64,000 nucleotides of DNA, taken from positions 27,468,001 through 27,532,000 of the forward strand of contig CM097885.1 of the NCBI GenBank assembly GCA_044892525.1, read 5' to 3'. Position 1 is the first letter of the stretch. Each line of letters opens with the position of its first letter. This document shows positions 5,961 through 55,652 of this stretch, piece after piece. The position numbers and the translations under genes are program-made. Under the pieces are notes generated by a model. It saw only the letters and a program-made list of their open reading frames with translations, was not told the origin of the DNA and made no database searches. This DNA is from Schmidtea polychroa. Lineage: Eukaryota.

Positions 5961-7202
5961 TATACAACAGTAGAATGAGCCACTTTGAATGACTTCGCCG
6001 ACGAGGGAGTATTGGAACACAGTTCAAACAATAAACCTGCTCGCCAGCGAAACCTTTCTCTGAGGCTAACGAAAATGAAAAAACATAAGCGAATTACAAT
6101 AATTCAGCTTAAATAAGGTTATAATTAAATCATGCGCCATGACACGAATAATTAGATAATAATTTTGAATTGGTAAAACAACAAAATTTGTTTTCATCCC
6201 CAATTTTTGATAAAAATTAAAATTAAAGATCCGAGTGTTATAGATGGTATAAGACAACCACAGGCAGAATACGAATTTCAGGACCTAATTTTTTTGGTTA
6301 TTGAATGATGTTGTGATAAAAGTATTACTAAGAAATTTCCTTTTAATCTTGATTTAGTTTGAAGTTATATGGTAATAAGAATTTAATCCCAAATTACTAT
6401 TTGAAATTTTCGTTATTAATTTACTGTTTAACTTACGACACGAAACTTATTTACAATTTGACTACAACTAATTATTCGACCTACCATTTTACGACCTAGC
6501 CGAACGAGTATTTATAAAAGATGAAGCGTTGAGCTAAGAGACAAAATTGAAATAACCATTATCGTTAACTATACTTATCTAATAACAGAATGTCTCAATC
6601 AAGCTGTCACGACGAGGAAGAATCATACCGACAGACTATTACTCGGCTCCGAACCAGATACATTGGGTTCAAGATCCATGACTGGAACTGAGGTCTGGAT
6701 CTGGATAATTATGGTTCAGTCATACGGAGTGGCCCCGAGCCCGATGCCCCGGCGTTGGTGAAAGTAGAACCGAAGAACAATCTGTTACAGGAGGCCCGCG
6801 ACCGAGCGGCCATGGAATTGGAGGCAGCCCAAGCGCGGCTGAGGTTTATACACGAGAGGTTTATACACGACACCCTCAAAGATCAGTGTGAGGAGTTAAA
6901 ATTAAAATACTAAATTAAATTAGTTCATGATTAAAATTTGTAAAATTTTAATTGAAACTTAAATTATTTTAAGATATTAAAATTGAAATGATAATTGAAA
7001 TTTTAAAATAAAATAATTTTTAATAAAATTGAAATTCAAGTATGAATGCGATGGTATGTTGATATTTGGTTGAAATTAAAATTTAGAAAATGTCCCAAGA
7101 ATATTTGTTTATATAATCAGATTTAATGAAATATAATTTTGGATTTAATAGTCTTAGTAATTTATTTTGATGACAGAAGAATTAAATGTTATAGCTTCTA
7201 AC

Positions 7203-8288
7203 ATGGCGACCATTCCAACGGATCTGCTTATTGGAAGATTACTTCCAGAAAAATTCCACAGAGGAGGTGACCTCGAATTATTTATCAAAGAATGTCAGAG
7301 GTTCTTTGAAATAACGAAGACACCAGTAAAGACCCAAATGGTACTAGTTATTACACTTCTGGACAGGACTTTGATTGATGAATATGAAACCGCAGAAGGT
7401 AAAACCGTTGAACAGAAATTAAGAGCAGCTTTTCATCGACCAACGTCATTGATTGATGACTTAAGAGAAGCCTTGAACTACGAGCAAGGTAACGAATCAG
7501 CGGAAATATTTATAGAGAAAATATCAAAAATGACTAAAAAATTGGCCTCACACACTTGGAATGAGGAAGAAATTCAGAAATGTTTATTGACACATTGTGT
7601 AAAAGATAAAGAAGTCAGGAAAGAAATCGAAATGAAAGATCTCAAAACGGCGGAACAAATTAAAGAAACTATAAAGAAGATAGAAAAAGTTAACAAGGTT
7701 ATTGAACAAGTAAACACGGTGAGATCAATACGACCTACAACTGGGGGAAGAACTTATAGAGATGTAGTACAAGTTGGAGCCACGAAGAGAAAAATCAACG
7801 AATGGAAACCAGAGACAAGAATTAAAGTGATAGAATGCTGGACGTGTCAAAAACCGGGACACAGTAGCAGAGAATGTAATATAAAAAGAAGATTTCAATG
7901 TTATGCATGTGGTGTTGAAGGTCACATACGAAGAGAATGCCCAACAATCAAATGTCATAGATGCAATGCACGAGGACACAAAGAAAGAGAGTGCTACACA
8001 AATATGGAAAGACGAAATCAAGGAAGAGATCGAGACCAAAGGAAGATGTCAGGAGGAAGAATTCAAAGAAATACCTATCAACAAAGGGAAGATATGTATC
8101 AATCAAGGAACGTACATCAAAGACAATGGGGAAACCAACAATATAACAGAAAAGATATTGCAGCTATCGAGTCTGATGATGAGATGATGAATACAAAACA
8201 GTCAAGCCAGCCAGACGAGTATAACAGGGAGAATGACCCAAACGAGCACGCTCCGTCAAACGGGACATTGATCGGAGCAATTTACTAA
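7203..8288 (+). CDS. gag: Gypsy Gag with three CCHC zinc knuckles
   Basis: Open frame; CWTCQKPGHSSREC, CYACGVEGHIRREC, CHRCNARGHKEREC; first ATG at the LTR/PBS junction is 7203. Confidence 0.9.
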   Translation: MATIPTDLLIGRLLPEKFHRGGDLELFIKECQRFFEITKTPVKTQMVLVITLLDRTLIDEYETAEGKTVEQKLRAAFHRPTSLIDDLREALNYEQGNESAEIFIEKISKMTKKLASHTWNEEEIQKCLLTHCVKDKEVRKEIEMKDLKTAEQIKETIKKIEKVNKVIEQVNTVRSIRPTTGGRTYRDVVQVGATKRKINEWKPETRIKVIECWTCQKPGHSSRECNIKRRFQCYACGVEGHIRRECPTIKCHRCNARGHKERECYTNMERRNQGRDRDQRKMSGGRIQRNTYQQREDMYQSRNVHQRQWGNQQYNRKDIAAIESDDEMMNTKQSSQPDEYNRENDPNEHAPSNGTLIGAIY

Positions 8289-8311
8289 GTAATATTGATT
8301 TCAACCAAAGA

Positions 8312-11300
8312 ATGAATGCTAACGGTATGTGTAATTTAAGTATGTATGATGATTGTATGATTGATAAAGATTGTAGTGTTTTTGAACGTGATATTAATAA
8401 TAATAGTAGTGTAGAAATCAAAAAGTCGAATGATAAGGAAATTCAGAAAAAATTTAAAGAGGAGTGTAAAGTAAATGAATTAGTAAAACACGAGGAAAGA
8501 ACTATAGAGAAAATTTACAAATTCCTCAAGAAAAATGGAGACGTGTGTATTAATGAAATTGTAGAAGATACTAGAGAGCAGAATATTTTGTCAGTAGAAG
8601 AACAAAAAGGTCCGGTGATAACATATAATATAATGCAAGGTAGACCGAGTACAACACTGGATATCCAAGGGCGGAAAGTAGATTGTTTATTGGATACAGG
8701 AGCGCGAATTAATGTGATGGCTAAATCTGTAATTGATCGATTAGAAAATATCGAAATATTAGAAACAAGGGAATCGCTAAGATGTGCAAACAACAGTAGA
8801 TTAGAAACTATGGGTAAAATAAACATCAATGTTAAAATGGGCAGTTATTGAAAGAAATGTAACATTCATTATAGTAAAGAATTTAATACCAGAAATTATT
8901 GGAGGAGTAGAACTACAAAGGTTATTTGGTATAGAATTGAAATGTATACTAGAAGAACATGAAAAACGTAGTGATTTCATTTGCGAAATAGAAGCTAGAT
9001 TTGGGCAGATTATAACAGATGAAGAAAGATTACGTCATGCCATCGACGTTTTAAAGGTTACCGGAAATAAGAGACTGTTAGAAATATTTCAGGCAAACAA
9101 GAATGTTTTTATGGCAGATAAATGGGACATTGGGTGTACCAATCTGATAAAACATAAGATCATCACGAAAGGAGAGCCAATAATGATTAAACCGAGACGT
9201 CAGCCAATAAATTTGGAAGACAAGATTGAGGAAGCAATAAAAAATCTAGAAAACAACGGAATAATTAGGAAGTGTAATTCACCGTGGAACACACCTTTAG
9301 TTTGTGTATGGAAGAAAGAGATAAAAGACATCAGGCTTTGTCTAGACTTCAGACAATTAAACAAGATAACAGAAAGACAAGCATTTCCAATGCCAAATGT
9401 AGATGAAATTTTAGACATCCTACACGGATCCAGATATTTTAGCTCAATCGACTTAGGAAATGCTTATTACCAAGTGAAGTTAGATAAAGAATCTCAAGAG
9501 AAAACAGCATTCTCAACAAAAGAAGGACAGTTCTGTTTTAACAGGATGCCGTTCGGTATTGCAGCGGCACCAGGAACATTTCAAGAATTAATGACGAAAG
9601 TATTGAAAGATTTGTGGAAAGATGGAGTGATGGTATATTTAGACGACATCCTAATATTCACAAAGACAGAAGAAGACCATTATAACATATTTGAAAAAGT
9701 CCTAGGGAAGATCGCAACAGCAGGACTAAGATTGAACCCCGAAAAATGTCAAATATTTAGAAAAGAAGTGAAGTTTCTGGGACACATAATAAATAAAGAC
9801 GGCATACAAACAGATAATACTAAGATAGAAGCAATACAATCATTTCAAAAGCCAAAATGTGTAAAGAATCTGAGGAGCTTTCTGGGTATCTGTAACTATT
9901 ATCGACGGTTCATAAAAGACTATGCAAAGAAGGCAAGAGCACTAGAAAGCATATGCGGAAAAAACAATGAGAAAATAAGATGGACAGAGATGTGTGAAAA
10001 GGCTTTCGGGGAAATGAAAGAAGCATTGATAACCGCCCCAGTATTGGTATTTCCAGATTTCAGAAAAGAATTTATATTAGACACAGACGCGAGCTTCGAT
10101 ACTATTGGAGCAGTTCTTTCGCAAAAGGATGAAAAAGGACATGAACATGTCATTGCATATGGTTCACATGCGATGAGCAGCCACGAAAAAGGATACTGCA
10201 TTACCAGAAAAGAATTATTGGCAATATACTATTTTTGTAAACATTTCAACCATTACTTATATGGTAAGAGATTCGTACTGAGAACGGACCATAAAGCTAT
10301 TACGTTTATGGTAACAACGAAGAAACCAATAACTGCTCAATTCCAGACATGGATCAACTATTTAAGCAGCCTGGATATTAAAATGGAATACAGGAAAGGA
10401 ACAAGCCATACAAACGCGGATATGCTATCCAGGAAAACATGCGGAACATGTGTACAGTGTATGATGGAACACGAAGACCCAAAAACCGGCAAAATTAAAA
10501 CCAGAATATTAACAGTAACAGCAGAAGGCGGATATAACAAGTGGCAAAATGACAATATGGAGGTCCAAGAAATAAAGAATAAGTTAGAAAATAAAGATTG
10601 TAAGTTCATAATGGAAAACAACACGGTACTAACTAAGCAAGGTAAAATATGGATACCGTCAGATAATAGACAGAGGATGATAAAAGAAGTACACGTATTA
10701 CTGTGCCATGCAGGTGCATAGAAAGTAACGAAATATATCCAAAATAACTGCGACATGGAAAATTTAGCAACGGAAGTAAAAAAGGTAATTGAGAACTGCG
10801 AAAGATGTCAGAAAATGAAAACGATAACAACCAAGACAAAGGAGGAAACTCAAAGAATAAAGAGTACAGAACCATTCGAGAAGATATATATGGATATATG
10901 TGGGCCATTGAAAGAAACGTTCAACAAAAAGAAATATATTTGCGGAATCATTGACCACTATAGTAAATACATCTCATTAACGGCCATAAACAAGCAAGAC
11001 GAAAAAACAATTAGTGAGACGTTATTAAATAAATGGATATTAAAGTTTGGAGCTCCAAAAGAACTTCATGTAGATTGTGGGAAGAACTTTGAAGCAAGAA
11101 GTATAAAAGAACTAGCAAAGGCAGCTGGCATTGAATTAATTTTCTCAAGCCCATATCACCATAACACGAATGGTATTATTGAAAGACAATTCAGAACAAT
11201 CAGAGAGTATATTAACGCGTCATTGAATGAAGGAGGAAGGAAAAACTGGGCTGATATAGTGCCAGAAATAGAATATACTTTAAATGCAACAGTTCAAAAA

Positions 11301-11657
11301 ACAACGGGAGTAAGCCCAGCAGAGATTATATTTGGGAGGAAAATCGACAGAATGAAATGGTACTCGAATAAAGAAATAAATAGAGAAGATATGGAAAAGA
11401 GAATAGAGGATAAAACACTAAAACCAAAAATAAGCAAAACAGTGAGAGATTTTGAAATGGAAGATTTGGTTTTGATCAAACAAGAAATTCGAAATAAAGA
11501 CGATGCAAGGTGGGAAGGGCCGTACAAAGTGATAAAGAAAATACATGAACGGAGCTACTTACTTAAAGATCAAAATGGGAAGATGGTAGTCAGAAATGTT
11601 GAGAAGATCAAACATTTTAAAAAAGGGGGATGTGAGGAGTTAAAATTAAAATACTAA
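8312..11657 (+). pseudogene. pol: Gypsy pol (PR-RT-RH-INT) with one frameshift and one nonsense codon
   Basis: LLDTGA protease; frameshift near 8830-8850; YLDD RT; LDTDAS RNase H; TAG at 10719-10721 inside the integrase HHCC region; DDE core (MDICG, VDCG, IER) and EGPY in 10755..11657. Confidence 0.92.
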
Positions 11658-12265
11658 ATTAAATTAGTTCATGATTAAAATTTGTAAAATTTTAATTGAA
11701 ACTTAAATTATTTTAAGATATTAAAATTGAAATGATAATTGAAATTTTAAAATAAAATAATTTTTATTAAAATTGAAATTCAAGTATGAATGCGATGGTA
11801 TGTTGATATTTGGTTGAAATTAAAATTTAGAAAATGTCCCAAGAATATTTGTTTATATAATCAGATTTAATGAAATATAATTTTGGATTTAATAGTCTTA
11901 GTAATTTATTTTGATGACAGAAGAATTAAATGTTATAGCTTCTAACAATCAGATTCGCCCATTACCCGTGGAACTGGCCGAGATCTACCCACCGGCACAA
12001 TCGAGTAAGCCCAAACGCAAGCGGCTAGGGCGAAATACCCGAGAAAATCTGAAAAGAGTCTGGCTATCGGAACAAGAGAAGTTAAGAAAACCCGGGTCAA
12101 CTCCAGCATCCCGATCACGATTGAATACATGGATTCTAATGTAGTGATACACATACTGTCAAGACTTGTGATAATTGAATAAATAGTTTAAACAATCTAA
12201 TGTGCATGAGGGTGAGTCTTGTGATCGTTGAAGACAACGAAGGTGTTTGAGAAAACAATTTCGGT

Positions 12266-12496
12266 AAGGGACCTGAGTAAATCGGACACATGCCTTCTAA
12301 CGTAGTCCGTGGACCCATAGAGTACTCGACAATTATAGTGCCGTTAGCGCGCTCACTTTTTGCGAGTACTCACCCACTTGATACAGTACCAACGTTGATT
12401 ACTCAACGGGTATCAAACCGTAAATAATGTTGCATCTTGGGGTTACGCTGGTAACAGCACTGAAGGATAGATATTTGATCACCAGTAACCCACCAT
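12266..12496 (+). ncRNA. Candidate structured RNA, copy A (four hairpins)
   Basis: Conserved with 46287-46516; stems cggac/gtccg, gagtactcg/cgagtactc, ttgatac/gtatcaa enclosing cgttga/tcaacg, gggtta-ctggt/accag-taaccc; compensatory and G-U differences between copies. Confidence 0.55.
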
Positions 12497-19427: not shown

Positions 19428-19467
<40 letters not shown>

Positions 19468-21255
19468 TATTACCACTTAAGTTATATTTTGTTGTTCTTT
19501 CTCTATCCCGACGTATATCATCATAATGTAATACGGCTAGTATGCTATATAAAAACAGAATTGATCATTGTTTTGAACATTAACTAAAGCCTGACAGTTT
19601 TTCAGGTAATTTGGCGTTTTAATGTAACTTGAACCTAAGTAAATATCTTGATTTATATATATATGTCTGATAATTTAGTTAAAATCATAGTAACTTCTAA
19701 TATTTTATGAATTCTCCACCCACTACTTTGTTGAGTGTATTTCTCCAACTTTTCTTTTAATTTTTCAATTCCATCATTAATAAATGAAGATGACATTGTA
19801 ATTGCTTTATTCGACAAACACCATTTTTTAATTTCACCATCCTCTTTGATAAACTCTGCACAAAGTCCAAATTGGATTTTTACTGTCCCCATTCGTTGAA
19901 TATGATCTTCTATTTCTTTGATGAGACAATCTGGAACAACAATGTCAGGAGAATTAATTGCAGTTACATCGCTTGTCAATTCAACACGAGAACCATTTAA
20001 GTCAGACTCCCGACGTGGACACAATTGTATGTTAGAGACTCCATTTCCGTAAAATATTGACTTTCGTTTTATGGTGCCAGAGATTTGTCTAACTATATTT
20101 ATAATTAATATTAAACAACTTAAATAACATAACTTGTAACATATTCTTTAATCTGCTTAGGATCGTATGATGTATTCATTTTCGATTGTACTATAAAAAA
20201 TTAATAATTGTTAATAGTAGAAGGAGCATTACTTTCAGCGATCATCCTGCTCTTCGTTTCTTCGAATCTTCTAAGATGGTGTCCGTGTTGTCGTACAAAC
20301 ATTAACCACCTACCTGGTGATATAATGAGACATTCCGGACATATGTAACCCGATAAGGTAGAGTCATTTATCTTGAAATATGATGATGTAACTGATTTAC
20401 AGTTCTCCACATCTTCATGACTTTCGGCAATACAAAATTTATATAAACTCATCCGTTCACTAAAAGAAAATAATCATTAATATTAGATAGAGAATAAAAA
20501 ATTATTCACTTATATAAGTTAAATTAAAAGTTTAAATGACACACATTTGAAAAGTTACTGCTTATATATTACACATGATTAAATTCTGACCAATCAAAAT
20601 CAAGGAAGGGGTAGGAAAAATAAATGCATTACGTTGCAGTATTTTAAAACTTCAATATATTTTAAAACACATTTTGACGCTAAAGTTTACTTATTTAACA
20701 TTTTCATAATAATTTAATAAAAATAATGTGATGAACCCACAAAGTAATATCATTTTTCATCAAATTGCAAAACAGTAATAACGTTTTCATAAATATTACA
20801 ACAAAGTAGTAACATATTTCAGAAAATTTCAACAAAGTTGTAAAATATTTATCAAATTGTAACTAAAATAATAAAATAATTGCAACAAAGTAATAAAATA
20901 ATGATGTTAATTGGGACAAATCAATACATTATTTCGAAGACGGACAACAAATTAAAAAGAATATTGTAATAAATTGTGAAGTCTTTCAGTAAATTACATC
21001 AAAGTAATAACATATTTTGGAAATATTTCACCAGATGTAAAATATTTAAGCAAATTGCTATAAGATTATAAAAATATTGCAACAAAGTAATAAAATAATA
21101 CAAAATTTTAAACACTAGATCAATCCATTTTATAGAAAATTAATTTTTATCTCTATAATATATGAATAAATATCCAAGGAAATTACGTGTAACAATGTAT
21201 ATTCAGAATTTAATTCTCTACAACATGGCGCAAATACAATTTCAGTTTGGTGCTT

Positions 21256-21720
21256 TGTGTAATGCACACATGTTTTTACAATAAATTTGTATTTTTTCGC
21301 GCGGTTAACGTTATTTTCTTGGATTTTTATTCATATAATATATAGATAAAATTTAATTTTCTATAAAATAGCTTAATTAAAAATTATGTATATTGTTTAG
21401 TGTGTAATACACACATTTTTTACAATAAATTTGTAATTTTCATACATTTAACCTAATTTTCTTAGGATTTTTTTCATATCATATATAAATAAAATTTAAT
21501 ATTCTATAAAAATAACTTGATTAAAATTTATGTATCTTGATTTCTGTGTAATACACACATGTTTTTACAATAAATTTGTATTTTTCATACATTTAACCTA
21601 ATTTCCTTGAAATTTTATTCATATAATATATAGATAAAATTTAATTTTCTATAAATTGGATTGGTTAAAAATTATGTATCTTGTTTTGTGTGTAATACAC
21701 ACATGTTTTTTAATTTTCTA
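21256..21720. repeat. ~145-bp tandem repeat, about 3 units
   Basis: Motif tgtgtaatacacacatgttttt recurs near 21256, 21401, 21545 and 21690. Confidence 0.85.
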
Positions 21721-22309
21721 TAAAATGGATTGATCTAGAGTTTAAAATGTTGTATTATTTTATTACTTTGTTGCAATATTTTTATAATCTTATAACAATT
21801 TGCTTAAATATTTTACATCTGGTGAAATATTTCCGAAATATGTTATTACTTTGTTGTAATTTACTGAAAGACTTCGCAATTTATTACAATATTCTTTTTA
21901 ATTTGTTGTCCGTCTTCGAAATAATGTATTGATTTGTCCCAATTAACATCATTATTTTATTACTTTGTTGCAATATTTTTATTATTTTAGTTACAATTTG
22001 ATAAATATTTTACAACTTTGTTGAAATTTTCTGAAATATGTTACTACTTTGTTGTAATATTTTCTAATCTTGTTACAATTTGCTTAAATATTTTACAACT
22101 GTTGAAAATTTATCTGAAATATGTTATTACTTTGTTACAATTTTTATGAAAATGTTATTACTGTCTTGCAATTTGATGAAAAATGATATTACTTTGTGGG
22201 TTCATCACATTATTTTTATTAAATTATTATGAAAATGTTAAATAAGTCAACTTTAGCGTCAAAATGTGTTTTAAAATATATTGAAGTTTTAAAATACTGC
22301 AACGTAATG

Positions 22310-22425
22310 CTTTTATTTTTCCTACCCCTTCCTTGATTTTGATTGGTCAGAATATATTTATTTTTCCTACCCCCTTCCTTGATTTTGATTGGTCAGAATT
22401 TAATCATGTGTAATATATAAGCAGT
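22310..22425 (+). promoter_or_regulatory. Putative Pol II promoter (duplicated ATTGG/CCAAT box and TATATAAG)
   Basis: ttttgattggtcaga occurs twice (local duplication), followed by tatataag upstream of the 83-aa ORF and PolB; mirrored at ~20560-20600. Confidence 0.4.
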
Positions 22426-22529
22426 AACTTTTCAAATGTGTGTCATTTAAACTTTTAATTTAACTTATATAAGTGAATAATTTTTTATTCTCTATCTAAT
22501 ATTAATGATTATTTTCTTTTAGTGAACGG

Positions 22530-22781
22530 ATGAGTTTATATAAATTTTGTATTGCCGAAAGTCATGAAGATGTGGAGAACTGTAAATCAGTTACATCATC
22601 ATATTTCAAGATAAATGACTCAACCTTATCGGGTTACATATGTCCGGAATGTCTCATTATATCACCAGGTAGGTGGTTAATGTTTGTACGACAACACGGA
22701 CACCATCTTAGAAGATTCGAAGAAACGAAGAGCAGGATGATCGCTAAAAGTAATGCTCCTTCTACTATTAACAATTATTAA
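22530..22781 (+). CDS. Small Cys/His-containing protein upstream of PolB, unknown function (mirror copy at 20201..20452)
   Basis: 83-aa ORF with YICPEC and HGHH, open in both arms. Confidence 0.45.
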   Translation: MSLYKFCIAESHEDVENCKSVTSSYFKINDSTLSGYICPECLIISPGRWLMFVRQHGHHLRRFEETKSRMIAKSNAPSTINNY

Positions 22782-22957
22782 TTTTTTATAGTACAATCGA
22801 AAATGAATACATCATACGATCCTAAGCAGATTAAAGAATATGTTACAAGTTATGTTATTTAAGTTGTTTAATATTAATTATAAATATAGTTAGACAAAAC
22901 TCTGGCACCATAAAACGAAAGTCAATATTTTACGGAAATGGAGACTCTAACATACAA

Positions 22958-25900
22958 TTGTGTCCACGTCGGGAGTCTGACTTAAATGATTCTCGTGTTG
23001 AATTAACAAGCGATGTATCTGCAATTAATTCTCCTGACATTGTTGTTCCAGATTGTCTCATCAAAGAAATAGAAGATCATATTCAACGAATGGGGACAGT
23101 AAAAATCCAATTTGGACTTTGTGCAGAGTTTATCAAAGAGGATGGTGAAATTAAAAAATGGTGTTTGTCGAATAAAGCAATTACAATGTCATCTTCATTT
23201 ATTAATGATGGAATTGAAAAATTAAAAGAAAAGTTGGAGAAATACACTCAACAAAGTAGTGGGTGGAGAATTCATAAAATATTTGAAGTTACTATGATTT
23301 TAACTAAATTATCAGACATAATACATGTATCTGGTAAGTTTATTTACATTATATATATATATATATATATAAATATAAACAAGATATTTACTTAGGTTCA
23401 AGTTACATTAAAACGCCAAATTACCTGAAAAACTGTCAGGCTTTAGTTAATGTTCAAAACAATGATCAATTCTGTTTTTTATATAGCATACTAGCCGTAT
23501 TACATTATGATGATATACGTCGGGATAGAGAAGGAACAACAAAATATAACTTAAGTGGTAATATATATGTATTTAGAGTTAAAATGGAAATCAGATTGGT
23601 TTCCAATGAAGTTGGTTAACATTTGCCAATTTGAAGCAATGAATCCAAATCTAGCGATCAATGTTCTCAAATATAATAAAGATCCAATTAAACAAAAAAC
23701 TAATGATATTTTCAAGAATCCGTTCGTTGACTTGGTATATAGAAGTACTTCGACGGGATCTCAGATATATCTCCTATTGATTGAAGAAGGTAATATTTCT
23801 TTTAATCATTAAAAATATTAACTAAATTTTAGAATTAAATTATCATTTTTTGGCTGTAACTAATCTCGATCGACTGCTGAATTACAGAGATAGAGTAGAA
23901 GGAGTCAGAATCCAATCACATTGGTGTCATACATGTCTTCATGGGTTTCAAAAACGTCCTGCTTTTGAAAGACATATAGGTCTTTGTAGGAAGAATGTGG
24001 AGCGTACGACTCTATACTCAATGCCAGAGAATAAATATATCGAATTTAAAGACTGGAGTAAAACTATAAAACAGCAGTTTGTTGTCTACGCGGACTTTGA
24101 ATCAATATTACCTCTAGACGACAAACACTTCCAAAAACATGAGCCGATTGCATCTGAATTTGTGCTTCTTCATCAAGGTTGTCCGATCCGAAATGAAACA
24201 TTTGTTGGGAAAAACTGTATCATTCAGTTCATATAAGCATTGGATGATATAGCTACAGACATAGTTTATCCGTGGTATAAAATTAATGGATCAAAGGAAA
24301 TGATGGAACTCACGTGGGAACAGCAGGAAGAATTCACGACTCAAACTCATTGCTACCTTTGTAAAAAGATTATCAATATACCTGTTCGAGATCATGATCA
24401 TTTTATTGGTCAATATCTGTAAGCAGCGTGTCAAGATTGTAATTTGGCTAGAATAATCAATCCGTCTTTACCTGTTGCAATTGGAAAATTCCCCGATTGG
24501 AATTTAATTGTTATTCCTCAATCAACAGATAAGTTTTTCACACTTACAGCGACATCGAAAAGCAGAAGAATTAGATTCATTGATTCTTTACAATTTTTAA
24601 ATAGCAGCTTGGCAAATTTATCAAAAAACTTGCCACGTCTTCCACTTACTTCAAAGATTTTCAATTCTCATCTAATAACTGGTAAAGGCATATTTCCTTA
24701 TGATATTGCTACGTCAATGGATGTTTTACAGTCAATAACAGAATTACCATCGATTTGGGAGGGAGTTAGTCAAGAAGATTATATACATGCAAATCAAATC
24801 TGGCGACAATACAACTGTGAGACACTGCTAGATTACATGCTCGTATATCTCAAGTTGGATGTTTTTCTGTTGGCCGATGTTTTTGAAGCTTTCAGAGAAA
24901 AACATTTGACGAAGATGGACTTGAGGCTCTATCGTTTGTTTCCATACCCGGATTAAGTTGGGCATCAGCTATTAAACAGTTACCTGAACCGGTAGAACTT
25001 ATTCAAGATCCAGAGCTTTACCGTTTATTTGAAGCTGGTATTCGTGGTGGAATGACATTTATCAACAAACATCATGTTGAAGCTGATGAATCAACACAAA
25101 TGTCAAACCTAGATGTTAATAATTTATATGGATGGGCGCTGTCGCAAAAACTTCCTGTTGGTGAATTTAGATGGATAAATGATCAGACTGAAATGAATGG
25201 TATTGTTGAAAGATGTGCAAATGGGGATGAGTTTGATTGAGATCGTGGATATGTTCTAGAGGTTGACATCGTCATTCCTGTTAGTATACAAGATAAGTTA
25301 GATGATTTACCTATAGTTCCTGAGCTTTGTTATCCACCTGGTAGTAAAGTTGAAAAGCTGTTGTTAACTCATGAGCCTAAGAAAAACTATGTAGTTAATG
25401 GTAGAGTTTTGACTGAATGGTTGAGTTATGGCGCAAAAGTCACAAAAGTTAATTGTGCTGTAGAATTCAAGCAAGTAGCTATTTTCAAAGGCTATATTTA
25501 TTACAATACTCAAATGAGAGCAGCTAGTACAGATTCATTTCAGCGAGATTATTATAAGTTAAAGAACAACAGTTTATACGGTAAAACCGTGGAAAACCTT
25601 AAGAAACGTATAAATTTGAGATTATGCAGCAAAAGCAAAAGATTGATAACTTATTGTAGTAATCCTATGTTTCGTCGTAGCATCAAGATTGCGGATGATC
25701 TCATTGCTGTTATACTTGATAAGGAAATGGTGTGTTTAGATAGACCAATGTATATTGGACAAACCGTACTTGATTTATCTAAACTTCGCATGTACCAGTT
25801 TCAATATAAAGAACTACAGAGTTATAGAGAAGAATTCAATTGTCAAATTAATATCGTAGCCGGTGACACAGATTCCTTCTTTTTAGAGTGTAAAAATGTT

Positions 25901-37445: not shown

Positions 37446-40281
37446 GTCATAAACTTACTGTTGGGCTAGAACTGATTTCTAGACCCAAACTTATAACTGT
37501 GACTGAAATGTGTAGGTGCACAACATGCAAAAAGCAAAAAGTATAGTTAAATATTAAAAACTACACCAAATAAACAATATTAATTAAAGGAGAAAACAAC
37601 AAAAACATAAACATAGAAATTAAATAAAATTATACCAAAAGCAAGAAGTTATGCCAAATCTAACTCAAAAATAACCAAATAAACATAGAATTACAAAAAA
37701 ACAAACTCGAATAACTTAAAAAACGGTAAAAACAGTAAAAAATTCCAGAAAAACCCAGAACATTCCATAAAAATGGCAATGATCATCATAAAAGCTACCT
37801 TGAACAATAAAAGTTAGAAAAATAACTAAATTAGTAATAAAAATAAAAAATCTTAAAAAGAAATTCATAAAACATCAGTTAAAATAAAAATAAAATTAAA
37901 ATTAACATGGAATGTTCTGGAACCGTTCCAAATCCATCATGGACGTCGAATTAACAGAAAATAATTAAAAAATAAAAATTTAAAAATAAAAACAAAAATT
38001 ATGGCACAAAAATTGCCATTAAAAATAGCAAAATCGCAAAATAGAAAATTCTGGAATAAAAAGAATTCGAGTTTGTTTTAATGCATCAATACATACACGT
38101 GTACAAAATAGGTATATATACCGACACGTTTCGGTCATAATTTAATCATTTTTATGCCAAATTTTTGTGAAGAAATTTCTAACACTGATAGTGAGTATTG
38201 ATTTTTGTTTTTGATTTTATTATTTGACTAATTATATGACTAATATTTTAAAACCATTTTTTCCTTTTTTATTTTTTTTTGTTTTGTTAATTTGTTAAGG
38301 GATGTACGAAGGTTCAACGGCGTACTGGTATTCCTACGTCGTTGTTCAGTCCTGCATCCAATTTATTAAGATTTAGGACATGCATTATGAATATTATACT
38401 GATTACTTATTATACGAATTTTTTTTGTTCGTGTCCTTCGGAGGTCGAACTACTTCATGGTCCTGCCATGGAGTTAGGTCGAGGAAACCCTCCGTCTGAC
38501 TCTTTGTATTTATTAAAGGTCAGCCGTAAAGGGTTGACTTAGCACATAACATTAAGGTTTGTGGAAGTGGTCACAGTGGGACCATGGAAGCAATATTCTT
38601 CCCGACCTTTGCTTAATACACAATTAATTTCAACATTTAAAATCATGGACAATATCTCTACACTAAGGTATTAATCTGAGTAGAACTCATACCTAAACTT
38701 ACACAATTCTGCACTCACACTCATGTAGTTGGTTGACCCATAAAAGTAATCTCAAGTATAATTTAACAGGCTAATTCAAATATAAATGTAGATATGATAA
38801 ACTTAACTCTTCAAATTTAAGTACAAAATTTAGGGTTTCTATATCGAACATAGTTAGATAAACGATAAATGTGTAATTATCCCAACTTAAAAACCTCAGC
38901 TATGAACAATGTGAATAAATCTTAACTATGAAATAAACCAAATTTAGGTGTATATGGATCAGAAAATATGAATCTAGTTATGTATAGATGGTATATGCAG
39001 TTAACGTTGAAAAGGTAACCCATTTATAAAGGTAGATAGGCGTTGAAGATGTATCTTATAAAATTTCGGTATGAATTTGGGGGACTAAAAATCTAAATCA
39101 TAATTAGTTACGAAAGAATCGTTTTTAATCTTAAAACCATAAATCATAACGATCATAAACATTGTACATAAATTGTATCGATCTTAAAGTTATAATTTCT
39201 CAAAACATAAATTATCGAACTTATAAATGTTATATATAAAGTTTATTGATAGTTATAGTTAAATCTTACTTTATAGAATATAAATTAGAAATAGTGGTAT
39301 ATGGATCTTGATCACAAATATAACTCATAATTATTAACTATATATGTATATTAATTCTGAAAATTATAAACTATAATTAGTTGTATATATAAGGTTTATG
39401 GATGTAAACTATAAGTGATTATAAGTAGCGGCGTATTTACCTGTAGGCAGATTAGGCATTTGCCTAGGGCCTCGGATTTATAAGGGCCTCCAAAATCCAA
39501 AAAAAAATTATAATTTTTTTAAAAAAAAAAAAAAAACAAAGTCGTAGCATTTCAGATTTTAAACTTTAACAGTTTTAAAATTTTCAGAGTTAAAACCTTT
39601 TGGGGCCTCAATTTCTATAAGTAAAAGAATTTGCACATATTCAAAAAGGAAAAAATAACAAATAGGATAAAAGCAAAATCCAAGCAAGGTTTGAATTTTT
39701 ATATTTTGAATATAATATATTTTATTTTGTAAAGGCCTACTAATTTTATTTTATAAATTGAATTTGAGGCCCCACGAATAGGTTTTAAACTCTGAAAAAT
39801 TAAAAAAAAAATTACAAAAAAAAACAATAGTCCGTAGCATTTCAGATTTTAAACTTTTTATTTACAAAATAAAATTAGTAGGCCTTTAAATACAAAATAA
39901 AATTATATGATACACAAAATAGAAATATAAAAATTCAAATAGGAAAAAACAACAACCAAGCAAGCTTTGAATTTGTATTTGTATTTTGTATATTTCTTTT
40001 CCAAAACAGAAAATGCATATGCAATTTCATTTCATTTATTGTTTGAATTTTGTTACACGTTAACATCATGATTTTGAATATTGAAAATAAATATTTGTAC
40101 GTATTGACTATTAGCATAATTTTGATTTTAGATTGATATTTTCCGAATACCCAACAGTTTTTTTTAAACTACCAAAACCAATCGTTGTTTCTTCTTGCTT
40201 TCGTCATTTAATATTTCATAATTCAATCGACAATTATTCCATTTTATTTTTAAAGAAAAATATTGACAAATATACGTTAAA

Positions 40282-42980
40282 ATGAAAAGAACTTTCGAGT
40301 CTGGCGCACAAAAACGATTGTGAAAAAAAATTCAATTGAAGGAAAACGAAAATCAAAGAAACTCCCTTGCTAAATTTATGTCTTTGGATAAAAATGTTCC
40401 ATCTACCAGTACTGCGACTGCAGATAAAACTGTTTCACTACCAGTAATAGCTGGTAGCGATGTTAATCTTTCGATAAGCAGTCTTTGTGCAGAAGTAGGT
40501 GCAAGTGATAATTGCGTTCCCACTACCAATGACATTGAGGTTGAAATTGAGAGTGAAGTAGTAAGTACAAATACTTATCCTATCTTTACTGACATTGGTT
40601 TATGGCCAAAAATAATTACTAATGATTTGATTGAACATTGTATCTGTACAAAACCCAAAAATGTGGGAGATTTAGAATCTTCTAAAAAATGTTATAAAGA
40701 TAACAATGATCAACAAATATACCGAAAATTAAATGATGTACATTTTTATACGACTAAAATAAACGGAGTTCAAGAGCTAAGAGAATGGTTGATTTATTCT
40801 GAAACAACGAAATCTGTTTATTGCTTTGCTTGTAAACTATTTAGTAAAAAATCTAATGTTCTAGTTTCAGGATATTCAGATTGGAAAAATATTGTAGACG
40901 TTTTGAAAAGACATGATGAGTCGAAAGAACATAAAAGTTGTATGTGTGCTTATGTTCGTCGTGCTAAAATAAGTGGTCGCATCGATTCCAAACTTTTACA
41001 GGTAATAGAAAAAGAGTCAATTTATTGGCGAGAGGTATTAAAACGAGTCGTTGCTACAGTTAAACTTTTGGGGAGTTTGGGTTTAGGGTTCAGAGGACAT
41101 GATAATTCTTCCAAAGGCAATTTTTTCAGCTGTATTGAATATTTGGCTGAATTTGATGACTTCTTAAAGGTTCACTTAGAAAAATACAGTAATTGCGGAA
41201 GTGGGCATGTTACCGTATTTTAGCGCATATAACGCGCACGTTATACGCATTTTTACAAACCGTGCACCCCCCCATGCGCGGTATCTGTGGGTGCGCGCTT
41301 TATGATTTATATTTTACACGTGGCGGCATTGCCAGTGGAAATATTTTTATGATGTGACAGTAACCCTACCATCGGTTTTATTGTTTATTGTAATCAGATA
41401 CCGTGCGCGTTATATGCGCTAAAATACGGTAATTATTTATCTAAAAGTACGTGTGATGAATTTATAGAACTTATGGGCAAAACCGTACAAAAATCCATTG
41501 TTGATGAAATAAAACAAGCTAACTATTTTGCTCTTATAGTTGATTCCACGCCTGATGCAAGCCATACTGACCAGTTAACTATTATTATCAGGTACGTAGA
41601 TCTGGATCAAAAAATTCAAGAAAGGTTCATATGTTTTATTTCGATTGAATATCATGATGCAACATATTTAGAAAAAACGATTTTGTCCGCCTTGTCAGAA
41701 TTAGGGTTGAACATTAATAATTGCCGGGGACAAACGTATGATAATGCTGCGAACATGTCAGGCATTTATAACGGTCTCCAAGCCAAAATTAAATGTTACA
41801 GCAAAAATGCTGAATTTGTACCTTGCGCAGGACACTCTTTAAATTTAGTTGGAAATACAGCAGCAGAATGTTCTTCTAAAGCTATTAGATTCTTTGATTT
41901 TATTCAAAATTTGTTTGTTTTTTTTCCTCTTCGACAAAGAGATGTGATCAGCTAATGAATACTGATCAAACATTAAGCCATACTTTAAAACGTATATGCG
42001 ACACTCGATGGTCATCTAGAGCTGAAGCTGTATTAACTGTAAGAATGAATTTTTCTTCCATAAAAACTGTTCTTGGTGAAATTTGTATTAACCCATCTGA
42101 AAAACCCATAGCGAAAATTGAGGCGAAAAAATTACATAGCAGTTTTGAAGATTTAGAGACGGCTCTGTTATTGATTTTTTGGAATACGCTATTGCAAAGA
42201 ATCAATGCCACCAATAAATCGTTACAAAGCAAAGAATGTAACTTACAAAAAGGAACATATTTATTGAAATCTTTATCAGAATTCATACTTAGTATTCGAA
42301 CTAATGATGCATATTTTCACCAAATTGAAAAAGAAGCCATCGAATTATCTGGTAGTACAGAATACTCAACAGCAAAATATCGAAACAGGAAAAGAAAAAT
42401 ACTATTCGATGAAACTTCTGATAATGACACAATTTTATGTGGGAAAGAATTATTCAAAGTTGAAACATTTTACTCAATTTGTGATACTTTAAACTGTGAA
42501 ATAAAAGAAGGTCTGTAGTTTATGACAAGGTATTAGAAAAGTTTCTAATATTTGTTGATTTAGATTTGCCTGAAGAAAAATTTGCTCAGTGTGTATCAAA
42601 TTTAGCTGAACACTATAAAGATGACATAAATCAATTAGTATTCAAAGATGAGGTTGAACAGTTCCTTCATTTTGTAAAATTGGAAAAATTATTAACACTT
42701 CCTGAAATGTATGCATCAATTCTGGAAGGTTTATCTTCAACATTTCCAAACGTTGAAATAATCCTAAAAATTTTTTTAACAATCCCAATTGCAAATGCGT
42801 CTGGTGAGAGATCATTTAGCATTCTTAAGCGGGTCAAAAACTACCTAAGGACGTCACTTGGCCAAAAAAAACTAAATCACTTGGCTATCATGGCAATTGA
42901 AAGCGATCTAGTAAAAAAATTAACTATGACTCATTAATTGATAATTTTGCAAAAAATAAATCACGAAATAAAATATTATA
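40282..42980 (+). pseudogene. ZMYM1-like hAT transposase with stops/frameshifts
   Basis: REWLIYS..YCFACKLF, FRGH, DSTPD, GQTYDNAANMSG, CAGHSLNL, DTRWSSR, ASGERSFS (dimerization domain) over ORFs 40336, 41473, 41955 and 42566. Confidence 0.9.
41213..41429. mobile_element. Tc1/mariner (pogo/Tigger-type) MITE inserted in the hAT transposase
   Basis: Perfect 28-bp TIR ccgtattttagcgcatataacgcgcacg with TA duplication; removal restores GSGHVNYLSKSTCDEFIELMG. Confidence 0.93.
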
Positions 42981-43344
42981 AATGGGCTTTCTTTGGTCAA
43001 AATTTAGAAACCAAGCCATGAAAAAAAATATTAGAGGGGCCACAATAATTGATTTTTGTCTAGGGCCTCAATTTGTTAAAATCCGCCTCTGAATTATAAG
43101 TTCTAACTCTAACATATGGAATATAAATAATGCCAGGTAAATCGGCATTATAAATATAATCTATAAAGAGGTATCAAGAGGTACCAGTTACAAATGATTA
43201 TACTTAATATTTAACTATAAATATATAAAGTATAAATAGCTAGAATAGCTTGCCTTTAAGTACACGACGTTAAAAAATTTAGAAATAAAAATTATATTTT
43301 GTTGAAATTATAAATTATAAATTGAAATTAATTATATTTCTTAT

Positions 43345-43700
<356 letters not shown>

Positions 43701-45061
43701 TAAATAATTATTTCATAAAAATAAAATTATAAAACAAATTATTGATCTTGGGATTCCCCTATCTCTAAATTTAGTTCAGTGGCCCTATCTTCCAATAAAA
43801 GTGCGGAAACTCACTAAATTCTATTTTTAGTAACACCCCCCCCCCGGAAAACGACCTCTATATTACTAATGGGGGAATATATATGTATATATGGATAATA
43901 TAAGTGTGTGTGTGTGTGTGTGAAGATACAAGTATACATGCGTGATTCTGGATATATTCCCATAAATCTACCAAATAGCTGTCCGGATCTCAATGCGGTA
44001 TCATGACCACAACCCTTTGTGGTAATAGTATGAGGAGAAATAATTTACTGAAACAATTTATTAAAATAATTTACTAATTTATTAAAGTTATTAAATTTAT
44101 TTCAAACCCAAATCAAAGGAAGTCTAAATTTATTAATCTCTAAAATTCTGACAAAATTATCAAATCGAAGGACGAGGAGCTTGATGGTGAACTACGTTTG
44201 TTGATCCAGTCGCCCTGTATGTTTGCATCATGGTTTCTTCGAATCATATTCATGCCAAAGTCCTGTGGGCACAGGTGAGGAAATGTATCCCCTGGGGTGG
44301 GAGGGCCTCTGGGTGGTTCCTTCGGTTTTTTTTATTGGTTCAGCGATTTTAGTGTTGTTTTGATGTGATAATGTTGGATAGCCGACTATACTTCTTGTGT
44401 CTCTTATACGTAATCATTGTCAGGTAAATCCACCAGGACGATTAGTGGGTGGAACCAACCTTGGGATGACCGGGCCATCACACCTCATTGAATTGTGGTA
44501 AGCTTGATTGCTGAGCGAGTCTTCGAGTTTTCTCGTTGGTGCTGTCAGGCAGTCCTTGCTCAGGCTGGATGTCGTGGTAGGTTGTTGGTCAGTGGTGATT
44601 GTTGTGGGAGTGCGGCCGACTACTGATATTACTGAAATGTAATTAAAAAATTTACGATATCAACATTTAATATTTTCAGTTGTTTATCTTATCATAGCAA
44701 AATTAACCAAAAGTACAAATTGATTCAAAATTCATTATTTATCATTAATTATAATTATATCAACAAAACAACGAAAAAATTTAGATACTGTTAAATGACT
44801 ATAACAAAACAAAAAGTACTAAAAATCAAGGTTCCATGGCTTTATTCAAATTATTAGTTACCAAATTTTTTCTATTAGATAAAAATTTTTTTTGTCTTCT
44901 TAATTTAATTGATTGAAAATTATCGCCAAGTTAAATTCAATCTTCGTGTTAAAAGCACTTAACTTACTTACAGTAACTTATTATTTAGTTGAGATATTTT
45001 ATCATAACTTCAATTTGTAAGTCATTGGTTGGGAACAGGTTTTAACATTTGTACTGCAGAC

Positions 45062-46117
45062 ATGTCACAATCAAGCGACCACAGTGAAGAAGAGGACCAA
45101 CATATGATCACTCGACTCCGTACCCGGTACATTTGGTACCACATCCATCGGTGGAGTCAGGGACGGGATCTGGATAGCACTAATCGAGTTATCTGAAGTG
45201 GCCCCGAACCAGATGCCCCGGCGTGGGTGAAGATAGAACCGGCAAACAATGTACTCCAGGAGGCCCGTGATCAAGCGGCTGGTGCCGTAGAGGCCACCCA
45301 GGTGCGACTCAAGAAGATCGAGTTGCAAATCAGAGCAGAAAGGGAGGGAGTGCCCCTGGAGGAGCTAGAGGAGGCCGAAGCACCCCCACGAAAGAGAGGG
45401 AGGCCCCGCAAATGCCGATGGTGATCAAGGACTGACTCTTGACTTACTATAATCAACTCCTTTTCATTGTTTATATTGTGATGAATAATCAAAAACTGGT
45501 TGAGGATCATATTTTACTCCTTTTAATAAATTATCTTCTGAATAAATTGTCTATTTAATATCTAAAAGTATTGTTATGCATGATATTGATCTTATTATAT
45601 TGAATGAGTGGAATGCTGCAAGAAGGTAATCATTGTATTTTTTCTAGTGTTCAAACTATGTGAAAATCTACAAAGGGACAGAGAAGAAGCCCAAAAACAG
45701 GCCGAGGAGCTCCGCGTACGAGTGGACCAGCTCAAAGGGCGGTGCCGGAAACTCGAGGGCACCTGGTTTAGTCCCGAAACAATGAAGAAGAAAACAGCCC
45801 AGATCCTCCAGCTGCAAACACAGGCCGCCCAGGATCAAATGGAAATTCGTGCCCTAAAACTGCAGGTACGCGCGCTCGAAACCAAACGGAATGAACAGTT
45901 GGTGCAGGAGGCCGTGGCAAGACAAATACGGCCACTGGCCGTTGAACTCGCAACAATATATTCCCCGGCCGCTGAAAATAAGCCCAAAAGAAAACGGCTC
46001 GGACGGAATATTCGTGAAAAATTAAAGAAAGCTAGGCTGGCCGAATACGAGCGGCAACCAAATTCATCACAAGCGTCTACGACGGGGTTGGCCAGCTCTA
46101 CCAACAAGTCGATTTGA
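45062..46117 (+). pseudogene. Copy B of unknown coiled-coil protein gene with AT-hook and basic motif
   Basis: ATG 45062, one in-frame TGA (Arg codon in copy A), AT-hook PRKRGRPRK, AT-rich intron-like spacer, then coiled-coil segment and KPKRKRLGR; homologous to copy A. Confidence 0.65.
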
Positions 46118-46286
46118 ACTTCTTTCTGTCTTGTATATTTTGTAGTGTGTGTCGTATATTTTTGTAGCATCAAAATAAATTTTGTTAAAATAATTCATAT
46201 GTTGTAGTAGTAAAATAATTTCAACTATATTTTATGATTGCCTGAGAAATGGGAGTTTGTGCGTAAGGTTGGGAAAACAATTTTAA

Positions 46287-46516
46287 TAAGGGACCTGAGA
46301 AATTGGACATACACCTTTTAACGGTAGTCCGTGAACCCATAGAGTACTCGACAATTATAGTGCCTTAATGCACTCACTTTTTGCGAGTACTCAACCCTTG
46401 GTACAGTACCAACGTTGATTACTCAACGGGTACCAAGTGGAAACGTAATGTTGTATTCTGGGTTACACTGGTAACAGCATTAACTAACAAACCTTCAACC
46501 ACCAGTAACCCACCAT
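46287..46516 (+). ncRNA. Candidate structured RNA, copy B (four hairpins)
   Basis: Same stems as 12266-12496 with cttggtac/gtaccaag, agtgc/gcact and tggac/gtccg variants. Confidence 0.55.
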
Positions 46517-48889: not shown

Positions 48890-50176
48890 ATGAATAATAT
48901 AAAAATTCAAGAAAAAAATAAATTAAATCTTGATTATAATAAAGAATTTACTCATGAAATCAAGAAAAATGATGTACTTAAAATATCCCCAACTTCAGGA
49001 TCTATAGCAAACTTAAATCGTAGGGGTGATATAGTTTTTCAATCTCTTCAAACATCAAACCCAATAGATATTTGTAATGCCAAATTATATTATAAAATTG
49101 AATTAGAAATTGAAGCAAACAAAGATATAACCCTAGAAAATAATTTCTTTCCAAATTTATTCTCCAACATGAGATTAAAACTAGGATCATCAGAAATTGT
49201 AACTGTTTTACATCCAGGAGTATATTCTACAATGTTAAATTTTATTTTGACTGGTTGTGATTATAAAAATGAATATGGTAAATTAACAGGTTGGATTCCT
49301 GATGTTAATAAAGGGGATTTAGATAAAGATGGTTTAGATATAAATTATGCTTACTATAAAAGAGCTGAACTTTATAAATCTAAAAAATTTGAAGGTTATT
49401 TTGAATTAAAACACTTGTTTGGATTCCTTCAAAACTATAATCGTATACTTCATAATGTTTTTATAGAATTAGTTTGTAATAGAGTAGAAGGTGATAAAAG
49501 ATTGTTCTATGGAGATAAGGATACAACAGCTAAATTAAAAATATCAACACTTGAATTGCATATACCTGAATGGCCATTAAATCCACATTCTGAAATCAAA
49601 CTCCTTGAAAGATTAAATTCCAACAAGTCTATAAATGTAAATTATTTAAATAGAATCTGTAGTGAATTTAGTATGACAGAGGGTTCAACATATTCTATAA
49701 AGGTAGCAAATTTAGCATACCGACCAAGATATATCTTGATTGGATTCAAAGAAGTAGATTCATCTTTCCAAAAAAATAACAACCTATTTATTCAAAAGAT
49801 TGAAAATGATAATTTAAAAACAATCCAAATTCAATTAAATAGTTCTTATTATCCAATAAATAGAATGGAATTTAATATTGAAAATAATGAAAACATATTC
49901 CCATATCTAAATTATATTGGAACATGTTATGATTTCAAAGTTGAACCACAATTAAGTTTAGAAGATTTCAAAAATTTATATTCTATATTTTGTATAAATG
50001 TATCAGATCAAGATGATAGATTAGCCATAAATAATGTTGATGTTACACTTCATGTAACAAAGGATTCTAATTTCAAAGCTAAAGTATATACATTAATATT
50101 AGAAGAAAAGAAAATAGAAATGAAATTATATGGTGGAAAGATTTCAATTATTGAAAATGTTAGGGGAGATTCTTAA
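48890..50176 (+). CDS. Major capsid protein (double jelly-roll, Polinton PY/hexon-like)
   Basis: Intact 428 aa, beta-rich; NNFFPNLFSNMRL, PRYILIGF, YSIFCINVS motifs; genomic context. Confidence 0.8.
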   Translation: MNNIKIQEKNKLNLDYNKEFTHEIKKNDVLKISPTSGSIANLNRRGDIVFQSLQTSNPIDICNAKLYYKIELEIEANKDITLENNFFPNLFSNMRLKLGSSEIVTVLHPGVYSTMLNFILTGCDYKNEYGKLTGWIPDVNKGDLDKDGLDINYAYYKRAELYKSKKFEGYFELKHLFGFLQNYNRILHNVFIELVCNRVEGDKRLFYGDKDTTAKLKISTLELHIPEWPLNPHSEIKLLERLNSNKSINVNYLNRICSEFSMTEGSTYSIKVANLAYRPRYILIGFKEVDSSFQKNNNLFIQKIENDNLKTIQIQLNSSYYPINRMEFNIENNENIFPYLNYIGTCYDFKVEPQLSLEDFKNLYSIFCINVSDQDDRLAINNVDVTLHVTKDSNFKAKVYTLILEEKKIEMKLYGGKISIIENVRGDS

Positions 50177-50193
50177 TATTTTAACATTTTAAA

Positions 50194-52418: not shown

Positions 52419-52433
52419 TTTATTTATTTAAAA

Positions 52434-53027: not shown

Positions 53028-53049
53028 TACCATTTTTGATACCATTAAA

Positions 53050-53916: not shown

Positions 53917-53938
53917 ATACAAAGTTATAAAATATAAA

Positions 53939-55170: not shown

Positions 55171-55652
55171 AGATTCATTTTAAATTATTAATAAATGAGT
55201 TCTTATATTCCTTGTAATAGAGGTGGTGGAACAATAAAAACAGGGTTTAATACAGAAGAAATATTAACTTTAACAGAAAATAAATATATTAATGAAAGAG
55301 GTGATTCAATGAAAGGAGATTTAAATTTAAATGGACACAAGATAAAAGATTTATCTTTACCAACTGATGAAGGTGATGCTGCTAATAAAAAATATGTAGA
55401 TGGTGTTAAAAATTATACTGATTTAACAACAACAAGAATTGAAAGTTCATTAACAACAAAAATTGATACCTTGATAGAATCCAAAGTTAATTCTTTGATG
55501 GAATCCAAGCTTAATAATATCGAACAACGATTTAATGATAAATTTGACAAGTTACAAAGTCTGTTAACTGAACAAGTTGTAAAGTTAAATACTAGTATAT
55601 TAAACTCTAAAGATAAACAAATTATGAATACTAAATTTAATACAATATATAA

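Follow-up and report, generated by a model that had tools for sequence, protein, structure and literature searches.

What is a noncoding block that is better conserved than its flanks, and that folds into consecutive hairpins, doing behind a coiled-coil gene in the Schmidtea polychroa genome? The question is raised by two related segments, copy A at 12266..12496 and copy B at 46287-46516 of the 64,000-nucleotide stretch that was analysed as a whole (referred to below as the window). The first-pass annotation had taken them for two copies of a novel structured RNA of the plus strand, and had named a ribozyme, a packaging/replication signal or a guide-like RNA as conceivable functions. Both copies do lie at these coordinates; they are identical at 205 of 246 positions within 12250-12495, and their flanks are less conserved (100/170 in the preceding coding exon, 68/132 in the UTR and 84/205 beyond the block). 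The pair-preserving changes that had been quoted are present in the alignment of A and B, and one of them, the A-U/G-C swap in hairpin 3, separates subfamilies (30 G-C, 26 A-T and 4 other in a pattern count over 60 copies). In comparison to shuffled sequences, hairpins 1-3 gave z-scores of -3.3 and -4.9, with 0 of 200 shuffles as good for each copy. The whole 239-nt block of copy A folds more weakly (z -1.8; 11/200 shuffles as good), and that of copy B gave z -3.0.

The block is not a two-copy feature, as it is present in thousands of genomic copies. The genome searched comprises 781 Mb in four large contigs with about 30% GC. A first look returned about 2,900 candidates of the window lineage per query copy, and exact two-motif matches numbered 4,540 genome-wide, against 2 for a control pattern.

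The block as the end of Burro LTRs

The block is the last ~250 bases (3' end) of the 4-5 kb LTR of the Burro/GYPSM1 giant gypsy-like retrotransposons, and we are nearly certain that it represents a structured RNA of the plus strand in this position. In all 60 fetched copies the similarity breaks off at an identical terminal CA, and a fixed 5' end is found about 5.0-5.2 kb upstream of the block (20 copies, with 10 kb upstream of each). The LTR ends read TGTTGGG...CCCACCA, i.e. TG...CA with a short inverted repeat. Both ends were located in 17 of 21 sequences; a 4-bp target duplication was exact in 12 of the 17 and agreed at three of four positions in 2, the remaining three being 5' or 3' LTRs of whole elements.

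One whole element is flanked by the LTRs L063 and L065, which have the GAAT duplication in common. Frames between them encode a Gag knuckle, MATH, a fusion glycoprotein, RT/RH, integrase, ankyrin, TRAF and BIR, so that a gag-pol with the RT-RH-IN order of the Ty3/gypsy type lies between two direct LTR copies. The giant internal region with MATH, BIR, ankyrin and fusion domains agrees with the Burro/GYPSM1 layout given in the available text of PMC6431247, where these domains (the fusion domain being env-like) stand between gag and pol. The RT/RNase H of this element is 83% identical to that of lineage F3; the element is broken into several frames, and an RT element is likely nested inside it. 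At L112, an RT frame with a Pfam match was considered as the Burro RT and set aside, because it gave no match to the RT of Burro; it likely belongs to a nested element, and the Burro element's own RT was found in shorter frames. Our lineage labels (A, F2-F7) belong to this analysis and are not mapped to the published names Burro-1 to -4 or GYPSM1.

Given the fixed 5' end, the 4-bp duplications, the primer site (see below) and the internal gag-pol, we dropped a Helitron, a Penelope element, a Fanzor-type guide RNA and a TIR transposon as candidates, and the guess of a guide-like RNA finds no support in a block that is an LTR terminus. A 3' tRNA-like structure ending in CCA was rejected as well, because other lineages end in CAACA and the CA is the LTR end. 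The block had also been read as an element standing free behind an AATAAA, the poly(A) signal of the coiled-coil gene. It is not a stand-alone element but the Burro LTR terminus adjoining the primer binding site, and the AATAAA is inconstant, as 28 of 60 copies and 9 of 30 primer-site-linked ones have it in their final 700 nt.

In the window, copy A is the 3' part of a Burro LTR (6501..12495, plus strand); its 5' part is missing, it carries an internal deletion, and it is split by an unrelated gypsy element (6887..11947, plus strand; 317-nt LTRs, gag-PR-RT-RH-IN, ATCAG duplication) from which the module, as we call the folded block, is absent. Copy B is a complete solo Burro LTR (37459..46515, plus strand; TGTTGGG...CCCACCA, TTAC duplication), interrupted by a 3.7-kb insertion at ~39427-43092; its module occupies 46300..46515 of the plus strand, with helices P1-P3 at 46300-46443 and then P4. 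The primer site is missing behind both copies, and since they are thus orphan LTRs, they are likely inactive in the leader role proposed below.

Elsewhere in the window, at 48890-55764 and 24444-24956, there are frames for a double-jelly-roll capsid, a phospholipase-A2-like protein plus integrase, and a protein-primed DNA polymerase B, which look like Polinton/adintovirus-like pieces. An inverted repeat pair of 1.5 kb (19456-23575; 92% identity, nested palindromes) adjoins the polymerase B fragment.

As to other parts of the LTR, TATA-like boxes were seen 580-655 nt into it, upstream of the block, in three of the eight LTRs scanned and were missing in the other five; "U5" for the block is therefore used here as a label by position only. 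A second GC-rich conserved block lies at LTR positions ~850-1200 (L064, L201, L196). Within it, the F3 and F4 LTRs are 82% identical over 126 nt, which is the sole long BLAST match between lineages, and this second block may be another structured element. Before the 3' LTR we found no polypurine tract (L196:4690-4730, L197, L198, L201, L203, L065), and a short or atypical primer is conceivable. All four primer-linked lineages have at this place a 7-bp hairpin with a 3-nt loop, followed by a GC-rich palindrome-like word, and the pattern has 1,121 exact matches, close to the 1,058 exact genomic copies of the primer site. A long-range pairing of this word with the linker behind P1 would involve 3-5 bases in A, F2 and F4 and does not fit F3.

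The coiled-coil gene is itself borne by the LTR. It has two exons (45057..46117, plus strand), encodes a basic coiled-coil protein and has homologous frames in F2 and F3 (26-28% identity); it is absent from F4. The protein is Lys/Arg-rich; its versions share a GTWFSP motif, and those of F2 and F3 also have an acidic-aromatic tail (L197:842-1603, L198:6059-6817, L201:4971-5756). It gave no Pfam match, no family or fold could be assigned to it, and an atlas search produced one match at 0.84, to which we give no weight. Possibly, it could serve as a transactivator or an RNA-binding regulator.

Lineage F4 is a young, non-autonomous lineage with many copies, a 14-kb body, a Gag-like frame of 877 aa and no RT match (L195-L196, L203-L204); its 5' and 3' LTRs are 99.9% identical. 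The LTR, of 1,644 nt, is devoid of the LTR gene, while the module is intact. Because F4 keeps the module without the gene, we consider that the module acts in cis for mobilisation, and not for the message of the neighbouring gene. It is also kept in internally deleted A-type elements. Contigs of four sequencing runs were compared with a younger sibling copy (L124) rather than with the window copy, and such contigs cannot show RNA ends. Contigs of one run, which is guessed to be RNA, give weak hints: they cover the module, and among them one joins exon 2 of the LTR gene to the module, one spans the LTR end and the primer site, and one lacks roughly the predicted intron.

Fold and covariation of the module

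The anatomy is given here on copy A, plus strand throughout. P1 (12283..12309) consists of an outer stem, an internal loop, a 2-bp inner stem and the loop CCUUCUA (12293-12299) with one or two variable bases; its tip, UUCUA plus the one or two free bases, presumably resembles a T-loop or a lone-pair triloop, for which it is a candidate. The linker G(A/G)ACCC (12310..12319), found in 27 of 30 loci and missing in lineages F3 and F7, is complementary to positions 51-56 of tRNA-Pro, in the T arm. P2 (12320..12371) is a long covarying stem with a 1x3 internal loop U/CAC (12354-12356) and an apical stem with a kept U-G pair, and we take the U/CAC loop under this pair to be a candidate C-loop by resemblance. 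P3 (12378..12416) has two covarying stems around an 8x1 internal loop, AGYACCAA/G (12385-12392). The helices form an open chain. The apical loops of P2 and P3 are free to vary, and across lineages they lack self-complementarity. P4 (12425..12495), a hairpin of variable length (80-140 nt), ends at the LTR terminal CA (12494-12495), and its 5' foot pairs, by prediction, with the spacer in front of the primer site.

Thirty loci chosen by the primer site alone fall into four lineages, with 13 in A and 17 in F2, F3 and F4 together. GCTCAC is present in 30/30 of them, CAGYACCAAC in 27/30 and the P1 loop word CCTTCTA, in its exact form, in 26/30, while a downstream control of the same length gave 1, 0 and 0. 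Whole LTRs of the primer-linked lineages gave no BLAST match in five of six comparisons. With further lineages gathered by motif searches, beyond the primer-linked set, at least seven lineages keep the three helices with swapped stems; they are 47-69% identical within the block, and their LTRs are otherwise mostly unalignable. The loop letters CCUUCUA, CAC and AGYACCAA are near-fixed across lineages while the stems swap. The internal loops of the two window copies had been described as invariant; "acaattat" and "cactttttg" are indeed fixed inside lineage A, but only U and CAC-Y-U persist across lineages. The module also offers a sensitive way to mark Burro LTRs which nucleotide BLAST leaves unconnected.

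Gathering the copies and building covariance models, as had been advised for a feature seen in two copies, upheld the covariation across many lineages. When 14 F2-F4 sequences were aligned by plain MAFFT, pairing held in 99% of cells and 13 of the 29 pairs showed changes on both sides; slid along the same alignment, the structure pairs in 32-45% of cells and has 1-4 such pairs. A model built from F2-F4 without lineage A matched only the two window copies in the 64 kb, with rough E-values of 5e-11 and 8e-9. With a second model, 94 matches from 96 loci were aligned; 88.9% of cells pair and 23/29 pairs change on both sides. We then ranked all 10,878 column pairs by a corrected G statistic in 75 sequences of 54% mean identity, having left out one cut match and 18 sequences more than 85% identical: pairs of the structure take ranks 1-11 and 15 of the top 20. 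There was no convincing extra pair, and no covarying pseudoknot or long-range pair within the top 45 of the 10,878. The structure guided the fitting of the later alignments (A4, A5 and A7), many of whose members were picked by loop motifs; it is therefore the MAFFT test, the model without lineage A and the primer-site loci that carry independent weight.

G-U cells exceed C-A cells four to seven times (88 vs 22 in A5, 89 vs 13 in A4), and the plus strand is thus the folded strand. Together with the stems swapped across lineages, this bears out the earlier proposal of a conserved plus-strand RNA structure with covariation. So does the absence of a known family, as Rfam gave 0 matches at the gathering score for the window; in six loci, with E up to 5, there were 2 weak matches, both outside the module. 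In viral and metagenome collections, 2 and 28 pattern matches were found, 0/30 of which scored with the model.

Primer site, spacer and contacts with tRNA-Pro

Behind 5' LTRs the block is followed by a 7-8-nt spacer and then by the primer site, whose 18 nt are exactly complementary to the 3' end of the host tRNA-Pro(UGG). Four of the 60 fetched block copies continue into an 8-nt spacer and this site, and all 30 fetched primer-site loci lie behind the module. The usual spacer between LTR and primer site is about 2 nt, so that 7-8 nt (L081-L110) implies an unusual trimming of DNA ends before integration. Every primer site found is a tRNA-Pro one, and no lineage with a different primer was found: a search for another primer behind the F2-F4 spacer gave 8 matches, namely 7 point-mutated tRNA-Pro sites and 1 unrelated sequence after TGG. 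At L114 (G000:C1 ~130.9 Mb), tRNA-Pro(UGG) genes form a tandem array with a 475-nt period. As the tRNA-Pro(UGG) pattern has 1,555 exact matches genome-wide, the primer is very abundantly encoded.

Folding with the primer site held open predicts that 4-7 of the 7-8 spacer bases pair with the P4 foot in all 21 distinct primer-linked sequences. Shuffled spacers pair less (1.2-5.1 bases on average), equalling the real spacer in one of the 21. The foot and the spacer change together between lineages, being UUGUA/UACAA in A and GAUCA, AGUCA or AGUUA versus UGAUU elsewhere. P4 is thus predicted to close across the LTR border with the spacer, and since the spacer is present only behind a 5' LTR, the full fold would belong to the leader of the genomic RNA. 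A pseudoknot had been suggested between an upstream "aatgttg" and the loop of hairpin 4. All 7 pairs are formed in 6 of 73 lineage-A copies and 6 of 7 in 52, with no compensatory change; moreover, the 5' strand is altered in sister subfamilies which keep the spacer-pairing TTGTA, and the loop word is absent from other lineages. On the predicted fold, the "aatgttg" strand is explained by the spacer pairing, and not by a pseudoknot.

Does the module also touch the body of its primer? The linker matches tRNA-Pro 51-56 (6 nt) in four of seven groups, and 373 of 2000 shuffles do as well; the best 7-mer match of conserved unpaired words to tRNA-Pro is equalled by 130 of 2000, and a 4-mer match of CCAA to the anticodon loop by most shuffled tRNAs. 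In none of seven settings did fixed-loop pairing with tRNA-Pro exceed 2000 shuffles. Lineage F3 is without the linker that matches the T arm, though its frames are long and intact-looking. From its letters, the linker is a candidate for a site like a primer activation signal. Another triplet in the P3 bulge was found in 111, 94 and 26 matches (controls 7, 18 and 2), with a pattern of scattered decay among the matches listed (100 of 111), and no lineage with a different bulge triplet emerged from them. A seven-copy set with two changes in this bulge was considered as a separate lineage and rejected: the six copies that were fetched have shared flanks, and the set is therefore a duplicated dead LTR.

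A bolder idea, which we find doubtful, is that P1-P3 make up a tRNA-binding aptamer, in which the CCA-A bulge would read the UGG anticodon in the manner of a T-box specifier loop, P1 and the P2 loop would dock the tRNA body, and P4 would deliver the 3' end to the primer site. If true, an animal retroelement would have a compact, folded device for choosing its primer, in more than 4,000 genomic copies.

Proposed role and relation to known systems

We propose, with middling confidence, that the module is a 5' leader platform which positions the tRNA-Pro primer and the reverse transcriptase for initiation. The 5' LTR would be transcribed through the block, and P4 would close over the LTR border with the spacer, as predicted from folding and co-changes, thus bringing P1-P3 beside the primer site whatever the P4 length. 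Closed P4 is also predicted to shield the first template bases, while the fixed loops might make tertiary or ligand contacts with the primer tRNA, the RT or nucleocapsid. Additional contacts between U5 and the primer, involving its anticodon loop and T arm, are known from the retroviruses HIV-1, HIV-2 and RSV, according to the available text of PMC3185550 and PMC11251516. The early guess of a packaging/replication signal is among the supported ones, and the job would seem to be initiation rather than packaging.

A packaging (perhaps dimerisation) signal, whose fixed loops nucleocapsid would read so as to select the 13-30 kb genomic RNA, seems to us rather unlikely, but it has several points on its side. 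The structured 5' ends of Ty1, Ty3 and HIV-1 hold packaging and dimer signals, as the accessible part of PMC11381356 describes. The module is intact in the Gag-only F4 and in internally deleted A-type elements (retention in F4 fits packaging and initiation equally), and its loops are fixed though Gag is only 43% identical between lineages, which calls for a conserved reader. On the other hand, all of it is within the LTR and 5' of the primer site, and spliced or short LTR transcripts would hence contain it as well, whereas retroviral core packaging signals are mostly 3' of the primer site. The P2 and P3 apical loops, free to vary and without self-complementarity across lineages, argue against packaging as well, and the pairing of P4 with the spacer points at the primer site. 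It is improbable that the module is instead a response element for the LTR-encoded basic coiled-coil protein, serving export or read-through of unspliced RNA in the manner of Rex/RxRE or Rec/RcRE. The two-exon gene for this Lys/Arg-rich protein does lie just upstream in A, F2 and F3, and the one contig that skips about its intron would suit such a role, but a protein of 26-28% identity between lineages, with no assignable family or fold, is a poor partner for near-fixed loops, and RT, at 83% identity, fits a fixed ligand better.

Still less probable is a self-cleaving ribozyme, or a 3'-end-forming structure that replaces the poly(A) signal, like the hammerheads in retrozyme LTRs. Catalytic or ligand-binding RNAs typically combine fixed loop bases with free stems, 21 of the 30 primer-linked LTRs have no AATAAA in their last 700 nt, the region before the 3' LTR is unusual too in being without a purine tract, and retrozymes carry a ribozyme in each LTR (PMC6765202, in its accessible text). 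Against this stand the lack of an Rfam ribozyme match (E up to 5, six loci) and the open chain of helices, with no covarying pseudoknot or long-range pair in the top 45 column pairs; besides, a cut just before the primer site would remove the strong-stop template unless the RNA were circularised. Conservation at the DNA level, as an integrase attachment site or promoter/enhancer words with incidental hairpins, is hardly credible. The block occupies the last 250 bp of an LTR, the part bound by integrase, but attachment sites need only the last 10-20 bp, the stem sequences swap while pairing is kept, and the four- to sevenfold excess of G-U over C-A is a mark of RNA.

The leader platform proposed here would matter for several reasons. 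Cis-acting RNA structures have been mapped in few LTR retroelements, rarely with evolutionary proof, and a single genome here offers dozens of lineages in which stems are swapped almost freely around fixed loops, that is, a covariation-backed model and defined bases to test in a 300-nt RNA. If the module binds its primer tRNA via the anticodon, or self-cleaves, it would represent a new class of functional RNA. Burro is among the largest retrotransposons known and shapes planarian genomes; for Burro1, a role in stem cells and regeneration is reported (accessible text of PMC13465017, citing another study).

The element itself corresponds to Burro as described in 2018 and reviewed in PMC6431247: the same size of more than 30 kb, LTRs, thousands of copies, and frames for Gag knuckle, MATH, fusion glycoprotein, RT-RH-IN, ankyrin and BIR. 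The available text of this review describes the proteins, and the LTR RNA structure, the primer and the LTR gene of the present analysis are not among the features it covers. The fold is not described in the accessible portions of the literature searched (including PMC8532177, PMC13238120, PMC11410931 and PMC8797187), and the 2018 genome paper, its supplements or Repbase may annotate the LTR.

T-box riboswitches have a stem I in which an internal loop presents a codon-like triplet and then a purine, together with a T-loop-like hairpin. Similarly, the P3 loop presents CCA, the codon read by tRNA-Pro UGG, then a purine, and P1 is T-loop-like. In T-boxes, however, the AGUA strand is opposite the codon strand, and in the module it is on the same strand; unlike T-boxes, the module has no Rfam match. 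Retrozymes share with Burro a structured RNA within the LTR, a 4-bp duplication, a primer site and non-autonomous members, as far as the accessible text of PMC6765202 goes, but Burro LTRs measure 1.6-5.2 kb, autonomous members exist, and there is no hammerhead or other known ribozyme fold. The 5' cis-elements of Ty1 and Ty3, again leaders of LTR retrotransposons, combine signals for priming, dimerisation and packaging within a structured 5' end; Ty3 uses a split primer site for tRNAiMet, while Burro has a whole 18-nt tRNA-Pro site 7-8 nt from the LTR, and between the module and the Ty1/Ty3 elements there is no match in sequence or shape, as judged from the available text of PMC11381356. In position, the module is like the retroviral U5/PBS region (the HIV-1 A-rich loop and primer activation signal, RSV, HIV-2), where structured RNA likewise stands directly 5' of an 18-nt primer site, according to the accessible parts of PMC3185550 and PMC11251516. 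Four of the seven module groups also carry a word with complementarity to the 5' T arm of the primer, and the unpaired CCAA could read the anticodon loop. The module differs in having three separate helices with fixed internal loops over 150 nt, in lineages 33-85% identical, and its predicted tRNA pairing is not above chance. The Burro element and structured U5/leader regions are already known, and what appears to be new is the fold of the module itself.
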